From NCBI GenBank assembly GCA_021469345.1, contig GCA_021469345.1_3049.1: a DNA stretch of 64,000 bases. One strand, written 5' to 3'. Position 1 is the first letter of the stretch. Every line of letters starts with the position of its first letter. Of this stretch, positions 5,752-12,560 are shown in pieces. The stretch is from a phage. The notes under the pieces were generated by a model, which was not told where the DNA came from, did not search any database, and saw only the letters and a program-made list of their open reading frames with translations. Both the position numbers and the translations under genes were made by a program.

Positions 5752-6030
5752 ATGATTATTGATTCTCAGTCCGTGGTTCAATACACAATCAAAATTGATA
5801 TTCTAGAAAAGCTATATAAGTTTTTACCAAACCTATACCATTCAATTGTTAATGAATTAGTTGAAGAACTACATCTTGAGAATAATGATTTCTTGATTGG
5901 AACTTATAAAGACCTCTCAAAAGCAGGATATTTTTACGTAATTCCAGCTCCAGGAAAAAGTATTGATGATGCATTAAAAACTATAATGATTTATGTCCAT
6001 GATTACGAAATTGAAGATTATTTCGAATGA
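5752..6030 (+). CDS. arn: Arn anti-restriction protein (McrBC inhibitor), 92 aa
   Basis: Length, acidic C-terminus and position upstream of asiA match T4 Arn. Confidence 0.6.
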   Translation: MIIDSQSVVQYTIKIDILEKLYKFLPNLYHSIVNELVEELHLENNDFLIGTYKDLSKAGYFYVIPAPGKSIDDALKTIMIYVHDYEIEDYFE

Positions 6031-6179
6031 GTCATAATCTTGAAAAAGTAATCGAGCATAATGTAGCTCAGGAACGTAAGTCGTTCAAAGAATTCGTAGA
6101 AAAAATTTTTGAAGAAAATAACACAGACCAGTTTACAAATCAAGCGTCTGATGATATTATAATAAAGTCAACTAATTGA
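6027..6179 (+). CDS. small ORF (50 aa), asiA.1 position
   Basis: ATGA overlap with arn; manually translated MSHNLEKVIEHNVAQERKSF... Confidence 0.4.
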   Translation: MSHNLEKVIEHNVAQERKSFKEFVEKIFEENNTDQFTNQASDDIIIKSTN

Positions 6180-6191
6180 GTGGTATAGTTA

Positions 6192-6464
6192 ATGAATAAA
6201 AATATTGATACAGTTCGTGAAATTATTACTGTTGCGTCTATTTTGATTAAATTTTCCAGAGAAGATATTGTTGAAAATCGTGCTAATTTTATTGCATTTC
6301 TGAATGAGATTGGAGTAACGCATGAAGGTAGAAAATTAAATCAGAATTCATTCCGTAAAATTGTTTCTGAATTAACTCAAGAAGATAAGAAAACCCTCAT
6401 CGACGAATTCAACGAGGGTTTTGAGGGTGTATATCGATATCTAGAGATGTATACGAACAAATAA
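6192..6464 (+). CDS. asiA: AsiA anti-sigma-70 factor
   Basis: 90 aa; MNKNIDTVREIITVASILIKFSRED... matches T4 AsiA. Confidence 0.9.
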   Translation: MNKNIDTVREIITVASILIKFSREDIVENRANFIAFLNEIGVTHEGRKLNQNSFRKIVSELTQEDKKTLIDEFNEGFEGVYRYLEMYTNK

Positions 6465-7121
6465 TTATTTAGCCCTTCCTAATATTCTGGCCGCCTGAGC
6501 ACATATTGATTCAAGGCGGTCATTACTTATATGATCATTTCTATACCAGTACATGGTTATTGTTCCAGCATAGATATTATCCAAATTGAAATATGGACAA
6601 CTGTACATGTAATTTATTTCGGGAGTAGGCTTTTTAGTTGGTAAAAAAGCAAATTTTGAGTTGGAATAATAATGACGTCCATTTAAATGAACTGTATATT
6701 CATCCATAGTTTTATCAACAGGATATCCTCCAAGTGATTTTTCACTTATTGTTGAAGGTAATTTTCCTTCGTATGCTATAATATCAACAAAATAGTTTAA
6801 GTTTTTAGGGCGGAAAGAATACACCGCACTAAAGTCTGCCTCAGATGATATATGAACTATCTGGAGTTGTTCCAGGGCGACAGATTCAAAGCGTGCAGTT
6901 CTTTCCTTTTCAATAATTTCACTGTATGTTTCATACTTTGATTGCTTATAGTACTCAAAGAAACTATCTCCCCTATACCAAACAATCGCCATTATAAACA
7001 AAAGAATTACGACAGCTACCCGGGAAGCAAGAACTTTCCCGGTAGCGTTATCTTTGAACAAGCGATCTAGAACACCAAATAGAATATCAGAGGGCGAAAA
7101 TGATATTCTAGGTGCTGCCAT
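6465..7121 (-). CDS. t: holin T
   Basis: 218 aa; N-terminal TM segment and large C-terminal domain; length equals T4 T. Confidence 0.9.
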   Translation of the reverse strand: MAAPRISFSPSDILFGVLDRLFKDNATGKVLASRVAVVILLFIMAIVWYRGDSFFEYYKQSKYETYSEIIEKERTARFESVALEQLQIVHISSEADFSAVYSFRPKNLNYFVDIIAYEGKLPSTISEKSLGGYPVDKTMDEYTVHLNGRHYYSNSKFAFLPTKKPTPEINYMYSCPYFNLDNIYAGTITMYWYRNDHISNDRLESICAQAARILGRAK

Positions 7122-7152
7122 AGACCCTCCTTTTAAGGATATTTATTCAAAA

Positions 7153-7959
7153 TTATACTCTTGAACCGTATATTGTACCAACTTTAGTCCAAGTTGGAGC
7201 ATTACCAGTAACAGCTTTACCCGCTGCACCAGCACCACTGGTATTATAGTTTAATGTACGGACAGCAGCGCCGCCAGCAGAACCAACATTACCACCTGCA
7301 CCACTCATGTTATTACCGTCAACGGTTACTTTACCACCTGCGGCGGTTAACGATGCATTACCACCATTACCTCGACCACCTCGACCACCAGTACCGAAAG
7401 GACGTCCGCCTCCACCACCAGCAACATTACCTAATGTGAAGTTATAATCTACGGACCAACCACCGCCGCCACCGCCACCGCCAGCAATTGCACCATTATT
7501 CGTAATACGTAAGCGTGTACCAATACCATTATTAATCGCTGTACCACCAGCAGTTGCTCGAACTAAAGCATCTCCAGAACCTCCACTAGATCCAGATCCA
7601 TTACCTCCTCGGCCATAAACAGTAACGCCAGAGTTAATAATCAATGTCACATATTCATTAGTTAATGAACTAGGAAAATCTAAGCACGGAATAGTTGAAG
7701 AACTAGAAACAATATCTCCTGTTATTGTTACAACAGCAGGAGCTGTTCAAATTGATTTAAGCCAATTAATTAAAGTATCTTTATTATATGAATGATTTGA
7801 GCCAATTGAATAAGCTTTTTCAACTGACTTTCCTGCCATTGAACTCATCCAACCGGGAACTGAAACACGAACTGCTCTCATCGCAGCATCCATCCAACGT
7901 TGTCCAGTTTCATTCACGGCAGATTCGCCAATCCAGCCAGGAACACCTACAATTGCCAT
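7153..7959 (-). CDS. 38: gp38 receptor-binding adhesin (T2-type, glycine-rich), interrupted by an in-frame TGA at 7747..7749
   Basis: N-terminal MAIVGVPGWIGESAVNETGQRW... (7959..7750) and glycine-rich C-terminal part (7650..7153) are in the same frame, separated by one TGA and 33 sense codons. Confidence 0.7.
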
Positions 7960-7970
7960 TAAAAATCCTT

Positions 7971-7988
7971 AGAGGGCCGAAGCCCTCT
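7971..7988 (-). promoter_or_regulatory. GC hairpin (AGAGGGC-CGAA-GCCCTCT) between genes 37 and 38
   Basis: Perfect 7-bp stem immediately upstream of the gp38 SD (AAGGA). Confidence 0.35.
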
Positions 7989-7989
7989 T

Positions 7990-10900
7990 TTACATAAGTT
8001 TAGATTCAAGTTCTTTTACACGAGAAGAAAGTGTTTTCACAGCTTCAACTAGAAGAGCAATCTGGGCTTGAGAAGAAACAGTGAGTATTTTATTACCCTT
8101 GCTATCTTCTGTTTCACGGACAGCTTCTGGTAAAACGTCTTGTAACGTTTGAGCCACAATACCCGCTTCAGTTTCAATTGCCTCTCCACCGATGTATTCA
8201 GCTTTATCGTAAATGACACCGTTAAGTTTTTCAACTTTATCAAGTGCATTTTCGATAGGCTTAAAGTTGGATTTTAAGCGAATATCAGAACGAATATAAA
8301 CGTTTGGAGCATTTATATTTTTGTATGAGTACAAATCACCGTTTTGGAAACGGAACACTTGCACGTTGTTCGCATATATGTCTAATAATCCATCGCCATT
8401 TTGCTTAATACCAGTATCAGTATCACCAAATGTTATACTGTTTCCACCAAGTGCGTTTGTTGTGTTAACACCAAATTGATTACACTGTGTTAATCCAGAA
8501 AGTGTAGCACTATTGAATGAAACTTGGTTTTGACCACCAGGTAATTTTTGGAAGTAAGCAATATAGTTTGTTTCATCAGCAATTTCAATGCGATTACCAC
8601 GAGTGCCATCACCTGCATGGAATATACGCATGTTTCTTGGGTTCGCACCGGCTTTTGTCCAACTTATGCTTCCATTTCCAGAAATATTAATATTATTTCC
8701 AAATGTTACTTCACCTGAAGTCATATTAATTTGGAAAGGTCGTTTACTGTTCCAATCACCTTCTGTAGCCGTTGTATTTCCATCTGCTGCATTTTTATCA
8801 GTTAAAAGAATATAAAACGTAGATCCATCGTTTCTGAATAATACTGAATTTGAACCAGATTTATCTCCATTACTTGTAATGCGTAATCCAGTTTGGTTAT
8901 TAATAGCTATTTCAGATTCAGCAACAAAACGCTTTGTTTTTCCTGAATCAACTAAGTTAGTCAATACATCTGCTACCTGTCCTTTAACATTTGTTTCCGG
9001 TAATGTATCAACAGGACTTTGAGCTGAGCTAAATGCGCCAATTATTTGAACTGTTGCATTATCAACAGAACTGTAATTGAATATTAACTGATTAGCATAT
9101 GTTCCCATATTGACATAAATGTCATATGTATCGCCAGATGTATTAACCCAAGCAATATTTCTAAATGAATTTAATCCTCTTCTGTATAAAACGGCATTTA
9201 ATCCCTTAGGAGTATTATTTCCCGTACGAAGAACAATTTCAGAAATTGCGCATTGATTAAATGAACCAGAATTAAATCCATTTCCACCAGTAACTGTAAT
9301 TGAAACCGTTGATGTAGCTTGAGGCATTGTTACTGTTGCAAACTTGTACCAACCTGCAGTTTTTCCATAAGTAATAAATCCAGAATTAACTTTACGGTTT
9401 AACGTGGTATTTAAGTTGGCAAAATTACCAGAACCACCAGTGATATTACCGTCAGTACCAATACGAACCGTACCCGCACCCAATTTACCAGGAGAGTAAA
9501 AATCCCCATTACGTTTAAATTCCCAGGAAATATCTTTTATAACTGCACCTGTTGAAGAACCGTCACCACCTTCATGGTATTGTAAACGGAAATCACCACC
9601 ATTAATTAGAGTTCCTAAAGAATAACAGCTATTTCCTTGAACATAACGTTGTTTTAAAATAGGAACATACATACTAGTATCAGTTCTATCAATATTCATA
9701 TAGAACGGAGCACGGACGTCTTCATTATTCTGGGAAGCAAATGAACCTGCACCAGCCGGTCGAACAGTATTAGTACATTCAGCATCAATATAAGATGAAT
9801 GACCTATCTGCATTCTGAAATTAGGAGAAATGCGACTATTACTAGTAACAACAACAAGTTTGCTGTCATTGTCCACGGTAATCATATTTCCACCTCTGCC
9901 ATCATCGCCTAACGTGACAGAATGGCGCATTTGTACCATACCATTATTAAGAGCAATACTTAACGGGCGGAGATTACTTATTCCACCATTTTCACCAGCA
10001 TCTTTAGGAGTCGGGATAATATGTAATGCTGTTTCTGAACGACGGAAAATTGCGCCATATTCAGCATTCCAAATTCTTAATGCATCTCTTGTTCCGCCAA
10101 TTTTAACTTGGCCGGTAATAGAAGAACCACCTTGAACAAACAAACCGTTCTTCATTGTAACATTACCGTTTAAAGTGCTTAAACCATCAACTTTAAGATT
10201 TCCTGCAGTGCTAATAGAGCCGTTAGCATTAACTGGTCCATTGAACTGGGTTACAACGGGCCCAACAGTTTCAGAACCTTCTGGGCGCTGGCGTTGTGAA
10301 TAAAAATAATAACCTTGTGAATCATATACTTCAAATACAGTTTCTCTAATACCGGGAACTGAGTTAAAGGCATTACCCCATGCTTTAATTGAAACAGTAT
10401 TTTTATTCTGTCCGTTACGAGTGCCTGCATCCCAGTTAATGGTTTTGGTTCCGTCAACACCGGTAGGAGCTTTAAACGATAAAGCATTAGTATTATCATC
10501 ACCATTTAAAAACAAGCCCGTACGCATAGAAATACGCTGGGTGGAGTTAATTGTTCCGTCCGCTCTAATAGCAACGCTATTAGAACCAGTTTTAATGTCT
10601 AAAATACCTGGCTCAACAATTAAACCTTCTGCCATACCAACAGCCATACGACCCCTGCCACGGAAATAGTGGTACATTTTAGAATTGCTGTTATAACCGA
10701 TATGAGTCTGACCATCACCGTTATTATTACCATCAACATCAGTACGCGCAGTAAACATTGCTTGGTTGTTATTTGGGAAAACCCAAGTAGAACCGGAATC
10801 TTGACTATAACCAACCATCAATTTTTTAGTACTATTAATACCATTATTAATAATAGTCGCCGCAGAAATACCGTTAGCCATTAAGTCAATAACGCCAGTA

Positions 10901-11886
10901 CGAACCCATTTAAGTCCAGAAGCAGTATCGCCAAGAGCTAAATACCTATCTCCCATTACCCCGGTATTTCCATAATCGCTTGACGGGTATCCTTCAGTCA
11001 CAGTACCAATGGCCAAGCTATTGCGGATAATCATTCTACCGTCGTTACGAATACCGTATAGTTTAAATAATGGTTTATTACCAGTCCACCAAGAAACTTC
11101 ATCAGCTAGCCCAGTCTGAGCTGTACAAATTTCATGGTAAATAGTTCCACCTGATTTAGCTCGAACTTTACGAAGATAGTTTACACCATTTGTTTCACCG
11201 GTTCCAGGATAAACATAGTTAACCAAAGATTGTGAATCGTATTGTCCAAATGCTTTTGCATCAAATGAAATATTTTTAGTTATAATAGATGGACCAATCA
11301 AAGAACCTGTTCTTGTTTCAATATTATTCTGAGCGACTAAATACCCACCAGATACTAATAAATTACCAGAATCAACTTGGAAATTACCATTACGATTAAA
11401 AGTCCAATATTTCGAATCCCCAGATTCATTGATATAATGAATCTTAAAACTTCCTTCATTTACTAACGTACCAACAGAAAAAGTTCCATCTTTAAAGCGT
11501 TGTTTAATTATAGGATTATATTCAGATGCGGAAAGAGCTGAGCTTAAATCTACAAAAATTGGAGCTTTTGCAGCGTGTTGACCAGACCACGAGCCGCTTC
11601 CAATCGTACGATAATTAAACTCAATATATCCACCGCTTGCTACAATTTGCGGACCAATTAAATTAAATTTTCCAGTCTGTGTATAATCTCCGGTTTGAGT
11701 GATATTTCCACTGATATTACCGCCAGCGGAAATACTTAAATCAATGATATTTCCTGAATCATCTTTAGTAAAAATTGTTCTATCTTTTAAGTTTATAGCC
11801 AATTCACCTTCGGCTAATACTGAAGCAGCAGGACGTGCACCTGCGGTTTTGCTTCTTTTAAATTGTATTTGTTTTAAAGTAGCCAT
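7990..11886 (-). CDS. 37: long tail fibre distal subunit gp37 (1298 aa) with C-terminal chaperone-like domain
   Basis: N-terminal [13 protein letters not shown]... and central region match T4 gp37; C-terminus carries an SDIRLK motif. Confidence 0.9.
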
Positions 11887-11894
11887 AAGTCCTC

Positions 11895-12560
11895 TTAATA
11901 ATAGCCGAAATCTTGAACAGAATCCTTAATTACGATTTGGTCAAATCGCGGAACGTGTGAAGGTTGAGACGCAGGATTCTGCGAGAAAAAATTTGGTGCG
12001 GTTAAGTTTCCTGTCATAGTGTCACCTTTACGGAAAACTCTAGAATCCGCATTTGCCGTAACAGTATTTATTGCTCCATCGACGTAGTCCTTTCTAGTAA
12101 GGTCATTTGCTGCAATTGGCGTCGGCATATCACTTCTTACTTGACCTGCAGCGGATACAACGCCTTTTGTACTAATATCACCATTACGTGTATTGATTAC
12201 TACAGTTCTGGCTGCTGAACCCTGTGATGATTTAAAACCAATACCATACCATGAAACAATATCAATATTTGCTGTAGCAAAAGTAGCTGCATCACCGTTA
12301 CCAGGAAAAATACCACTTTGGTTTGTATTGTTTATAGCATATGGTACTTGAACACCAGCATTAAATGTTACCTTTGATGCATAAGTACCACCATTAGCTT
12401 TAGAAACGAAATCGTTATCAGCAGCTTGTGGTTTATTATATTCTGAATATATTTTAAATGATTTATAGAGTACATCGTCACCGGCCGGATTCAATGGAAA
12501 ATTTCCTTGATGCCAAATGACAGAGCCTCCAGTTGTTGAACCTACTTTTAAATCAGCCAT
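11895..12560 (-). CDS. 36: long tail fibre subunit gp36
   Basis: 221 aa, the same length as T4 gp36; position between 35 and 37. Confidence 0.85.

Follow-up and report, generated by a model that had tools for sequence, protein, structure and literature searches.

The window analysed here, a 64,000 nt stretch of DNA, carries an ORF of 1298 codons on its minus strand that is gene 37 of a Tequatrovirus, as identified by its neighbours (Table 1). Upstream lie the genes for gp36, gp35 and gp34, and downstream a gp38-type gene, holin t, asiA, motA and gene 52. A Pfam scan of gp37 found two domains, Gp34_trimer and Peptidase_S74, and it is the second of these, formed by the last 99 of the 1298 residues at the extreme C-terminus of the distal fibre subunit, that is the subject of this analysis. 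A preliminary description of the locus had placed a chaperone-like domain with an SDIRLK motif at 7990..8289. This interval corresponds exactly to residues S1200-M1298 plus the TAA stop codon, and both peptides quoted there (31 and 19 residues) are read as written in the translation. Across the six frames of the window, the SDIRLK motif is encoded a single time, at gp37 residues 1200-1205. The window matches proteins HBN1578387-9 of an NCBI third-party assembly labelled Escherichia coli, whose contig of 167,936 bp is a complete T-even genome under a bacterial name.

Table 1. Features of the gene 37-gene 38 region, in coordinates of the window
Feature	Coordinates	Strand	Basis
Gene 38, T2/S16-type glycine-rich adhesin, 268 codons, TGA at codon 71 (7747-7749)	7153..7959	minus	Pfam, comparison with relatives
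Hairpin AGAGGGC-UUCG-GCCCUCU between gp37 stop and gp38 Shine-Dalgarno/ATG	7971..7988	minus	Fold, -13.4 kcal/mol
Gene 37, long tail fibre distal subunit, 1298 aa + TAA stop	7990..11886	minus	ORF list, Pfam, neighbours
C-terminal intramolecular chaperone (IMC / Peptidase S74) domain, S1200-M1298; predicted released fragment 99 aa, 10.8 kDa	7993..8289	minus	
PF13884 core, residues 1200-1257	8116..8289	minus	Pfam, profile positions 1-58 of 58
Predicted scissile bond R1199|S1200, codons CGT TCT; S1200 (codon 8287-8289) predicted nucleophile	8287..8292	minus	Alignment to homologues
K1205, predicted general base of Ser-Lys dyad	8272..8274	minus	Conservation, alignment to homologues
Long C-terminal helix ~1272-1297, expected trimeric coiled coil	7996..8073	minus	AF2 helix H90-115 of 116-aa query, pLDDT >90

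The resemblance of the gp37 C-terminus to the chaperone domains that end other phage fibres and tailspikes, originally suggested from the sequence, was borne out by three kinds of comparison: profile, homology to solved structures and predicted fold. The profile search that had been named as a check matched Peptidase_S74 (PF13884, 'chaperone of endosialidase') with E = 1.3e-16 and a score of 61.1 bits, the Pfam gathering cut-off for this family being 22 bits, and the profile was covered in full (58/58 positions). In a single-sequence search of the PDB, the closest solved relative was gp37 of Salmonella phage S16, the distal subunit of its long tail fibre (6f45_A, E = 3.9e-13), in an alignment that spans the GDxDTG...ANN tip region and the complete C-terminal domain; second came the ICA domain of MyRF (7dc3), with E = 1e-3. 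A profile search of PDB sequences strengthened both matches (1.8e-17 for 6f45_A and 6.8e-11 for 7dc3) and added 8jov, a phage tail fibre (2.5e-13), and 3gud, the chaperone of the GA-1 neck appendage (3.9e-4). The AF2 monomer model of gp37 residues 1183-1298 had a mean pLDDT of 80.5 and consisted of two short helices, four strands and a long C-terminal helix. When this model was compared with the PDB by Foldseek, the only matches with E <=0.06 were 7dc3 (TM 0.74), the endosialidase chaperone 3gw6 and 3gud. The chaperone structure of T5 pb1 (4UW8) was absent from both the sequence and the Foldseek matches. By profile, homology and predicted fold, the last 99 residues of gp37 are a Peptidase S74 intramolecular chaperone domain.

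A Ser-Lys dyad with S-x4-K spacing (S1200/K1205) is located at the N-terminal edge of the domain. In the alignment that also served for the profile and the AF2 model, which was built from 16 homologues including short fragments and is a conservation check, not a broad family survey, K1205 was invariant (16/16, at identities down to 34%) and S1200, D1201 and R1203 were nearly so, the sole exception at S1200 being a truncated fragment. S1200 aligns with residue 1 of 3gud (SDERHK), the chaperone released from the GA-1 neck appendage, and S1200 and K1205 align with S587 and K592 of MyRF, which are the counterparts of the catalytic dyad S911/K916 of endoNF (PMC8326128, PMC3742443). Mutation of either dyad residue abolishes self-cleavage in both endoNF and MyRF (PMC8326128, PMC3742443). 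The autocleavage site of S16 gp37 is DLNVS^SDRRIKK, and that of related T4-like phages of Yersinia is DVYIR^SDGRLKI (PMC7917993); gp37 of the window reads NVYIR^SDIRLKS at the corresponding position. From the alignment of these sites we predict that gp37 is cut between R1199 and S1200. The predicted mature protein has 1199 aa and a mass of about 128.8 kDa, compared with 139.7 kDa at full length, and ends in ...NAPNVYIR. Drexler et al. (1986) are said to have estimated the number of residues lost from T2 gp37 at about 120, which somewhat exceeds the 99 of our prediction.

The fibre tip had been described as T2-like, not T4-like, and the domain content of the two fibre genes agrees with this. 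Pfam detected S74 in gp37 of the window, without Collar or Phage_fiber domains, and in gp37 of T2 (residues 1243-1300), whereas T4 gp37 has Collar and Phage_fiber domains and no S74. The gene downstream is likewise of the T2/S16 type, its two halves matching Gp38_N (E = 1.4e-19) and GP38 (E = 2.1e-54); T4 gp38 is unrelated to this adhesin and matched no Pfam family. The suggested agreement with C-terminal processing of T2-type gp37 also holds, since the last 156 residues are 97% identical to those of T2 gp37, for which such processing is reported, at least as later literature cites it. Specifically, gp37 of T2 and T6 is described as undergoing cleavage, after which gp38 caps it (PMC3157838, citing Drexler et al. 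1986). Trojet et al. described a lock-and-key pairing between subtypes of the gp37 C-terminus and of the gp38 N-terminus (PMC3157838), and the gp37/gp38 pair of the window fits this scheme.

Family membership, conservation of the dyad, the predicted fold, a C-terminus nearly identical to that of T2 gp37 and a gene order of the T2 type, all observed at this locus, led us to favour a model in which the chaperone domain directs trimer folding and the Ser1200/Lys1205 dyad then cleaves the chain, exposing the docking tip for gp38; we give this reading a probability of about 0.93. In this model, the three chaperone copies of a nascent gp37 trimer would associate through the coiled coil of their C-terminal helices, and the chaperone domains would nucleate, register and so template the folding of the upstream fibrous region and tip. 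A role of the C-terminal coiled coil in trimerization has been described (PMC8326128), and the chaperone domain is needed for correct trimerization of endoNF and MyRF (PMC3742443, PMC8326128). Once the trimer had folded correctly, the dyad would cut the R1199-S1200 bond in each chain and the 10.8-kDa fragment would leave. The newly exposed tip, ...NAPNVYIR, would then dock the N-terminal domain of the gp38 adhesin. In S16, gp38 docks on the gp37 tip through a tryptophan-bearing N-terminal domain, and docking needs the chaperone to have been removed (PMC7917993); gp38 of the window has W9, W22 and W37. For gp37 of the window, we infer from T2, S16, endoNF, GA-1 and MyRF that the chain is cleaved, that it cleaves itself and that the domain acts as a chaperone.

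The domain could be a genuine S74 homologue and the C-terminus nevertheless be removed by a separate protease, from the host or the phage. This possibility draws on the 1986 work on T2, which, judging by its title and by later citations, established processing and did not identify the protease (PMC3157838). However, the Ser-Lys dyad of gp37 is intact and conserved, mutants in the equivalent residues of endoNF and MyRF lose self-cleavage (PMC8326128), and S16 gp37 is described as autocleaving (PMC7917993); we therefore consider a separate protease very unlikely. Still less probable is that the domain stays in the mature fibre as a non-cleaving, S74-like trimerization module. We found nothing in favour of retention, and against it stand the presence of the catalytic residues, the 97% identity to the C-terminus of T2 gp37, a protein reported in later citations to be processed, and the dependence of gp38 docking on chaperone removal that is stated for S16 (PMC7917993). 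A resemblance arising by chance or driven by coiled coils, which might be suspected because dozens of influenza HA2 chains also matched in the single-sequence PDB search (E = 0.03-0.6, over query residues 19-72, most of which precede the chaperone domain), is refuted by the Pfam, profile PDB and Foldseek searches and deserves almost no weight: the Pfam match (E = 1e-16) extends over the full profile, the matched core at 1200-1257 precedes the predicted helix at ~1272-1297 and includes the SDxRxK motif, the fold search returned chaperone domains only, and the HA2 matches, weak, non-significant and probably coiled-coil or compositional noise, were gone in the profile search.

Autocatalytic release of the chaperone would prepare the fibre for gp38, which had been proposed as the tip adhesin. 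The presence of both gp38 domains upholds this proposal for the gene as a type, but an in-frame TGA means that the adhesin is not guaranteed for the genome as assembled. Gene 38 is preceded by a hairpin with a perfect, GC-rich stem of 7 bp and a C(UUCG)G tetraloop; the identical element in phage G8 is annotated as a putative terminator. The gene does not form an intact translatable frame, and a full-length adhesin would need readthrough of codon 71. The TGA (context AUU UGA ACA) falls just after the attachment domain and linker, and the NCBI assembly annotates the gene as a pair of hypothetical proteins, one of 70 aa and the other of 190 aa. The closest alleles, those of G8 and FJ1, have GGA at codon 71, the only difference from the window within the surrounding 101 bases. 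Glycine is also found at this position in T2, IsaacDaniel and L006 (GCA_019566135.2, ABBWCH020000010.1), a T-even contig filed under E. coli. In L006, the last 114 aa of gp37, containing S74, are called as a gene (6001-6345), and ~3.5 kb upstream of it are without a gene call, which points to a gp37 that is either disrupted or was missed in gene calling.

The TGA allele is rare. It was absent from 50,697 phage records, IMG/VR, JGI metagenomes and GTDB genomes: scanning IMG/VR with a 32-mer for the gp38 TGA returned nothing, and 20-mer scans of IMG/VR, the JGI metagenomes and the GTDB genomes gave mostly chance matches, the sole real gp38 among them being that of the G8 genome, with GGA. In the gp38 cluster at 90% identity (54 members, 40 of them read), the 15 proteins listed were mostly intact, at 267 or 268 aa. 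A Logan contig from SRR17583572 is 100% identical to the window and probably derives from the same reads. The same TGA was found in one further contig, L009 (ERZ24909961 NODE_2009, from an ENA metagenome), the gp38 of which differs from that of the window at 41 other nucleotides. Downstream of the TGA, the dN/dS between the window and L009 was 0.08 (29 synonymous versus 7 non-synonymous differences); between the intact alleles of FJ1 and G8 it was 0.11, and all pairwise values fell between 0.07 and 0.14. There is thus no sign of relaxed constraint downstream of the stop codon, as dN/dS is no higher there than between intact alleles. The gp38 alleles are mosaic, and that of the window, taken as a whole, resembles the intact alleles of FJ1 and G8 more than it does L009. 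The window contains no tRNA gene and so no suppressor tRNA either, and its other large genes are intact.

The TGA may be a recurrent or recombining nonsense allele that is kept alive by leaky decoding of UGA, it may mark a defective phage, or it may be a shared error. A more specific proposal, in which readthrough of a maintained UGA would yield a 70-aa attachment-only cap together with a minor full-length adhesin, strikes us as unlikely. If the interruption of gp38 is real, a phage with a defective adhesin would be in circulation, or else the adhesin would depend on readthrough; we found no description of the latter for T-even fibres in the literature searched, and a search on gp38 with readthrough or opal likewise returned nothing relevant.

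The 99-aa domain is widespread. A tblastn search found it in 1696 of the 50,697 phage records, in almost every case as the terminal part of a gene with a fibre annotation. Among the hosts are Escherichia, Salmonella, Klebsiella, Vibrio and Aeromonas, and the matching records also comprise cyanophages and T5-like L-shaped fibres. Phage records ESh26 and teqsoen encode the identical 99-aa domain. So does the independent contig L009, despite 12 nucleotide differences within the 300 bases. As all 12 differences are silent, the comparison indicates purifying selection on a domain that would be discarded after assembly, as expected of a folding chaperone.

The complete gp37 is a singleton in clustering at 90% identity, and no phage record covers at least 80% of positions 7100-12000 (the 3' end of gp36, gp37, gp38 and the 3' end of the holin) by megablast; in complete E. 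coli genomes, no match exceeded 5% of the query. This gp37 is a new mosaic, which is usual for T-even fibre genes and has no bearing on the chaperone domain. In other parts, the window shares ~96% identity with phages FL23, SG1 and SHFML-11. The S74 family, its presence in gp37 of the T2/S16 type, the cleavage motif and the link to capping by gp38 are all published and already known. In annotation, the mature gp37 would end at R1199 and receptor specificity would be assigned to gp38, not gp37, and fibre-engineering constructs would have to keep residues 1200-1298 for correct folding. The consequences for annotation are nothing new for phages of the T2/S16 type.

Among known systems, T2 (PV648364) is the closest. 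Within the near-identical gp37 terminus, the 99-aa chaperone differs only at A1288S, and gp38's N-terminal attachment domain is identical at 42/43 residues. The remainder of gp37 is a different mosaic, with 1341 aa in T2 versus 1298 aa here, and the specificity domain of the window gp38 is G8/FJ1-like, with 96-97% nucleotide identity to those two phages and only 66% amino acid identity to T2 gp38. S16 (6F45) is homologous from the GDxDTG...ANN tip through the chaperone and shares both the SDxRxK motif at the cleavage site and the gp38 adhesin architecture, although little identity remains beyond the motifs; in S16, 113 residues are released by a cut at S^S, whereas 99 residues and a cut at R^S are predicted for gp37 of the window. 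The chaperones of endoNF (K1F, 3GW6) and GA-1 (3GUD) share the Pfam/MEROPS family, the Ser-Lys dyad and the fold class, yet they serve triple beta-helix tailspikes or appendages, not a T-even fibre tip, and their identity is 13-22%. The best structural match to our model, at TM 0.74 and 26% identity, is the ICA domain of MyRF (7DC3), a eukaryotic membrane-bound transcription factor in which cleavage frees the N-terminal part of the protein for entry into the nucleus.
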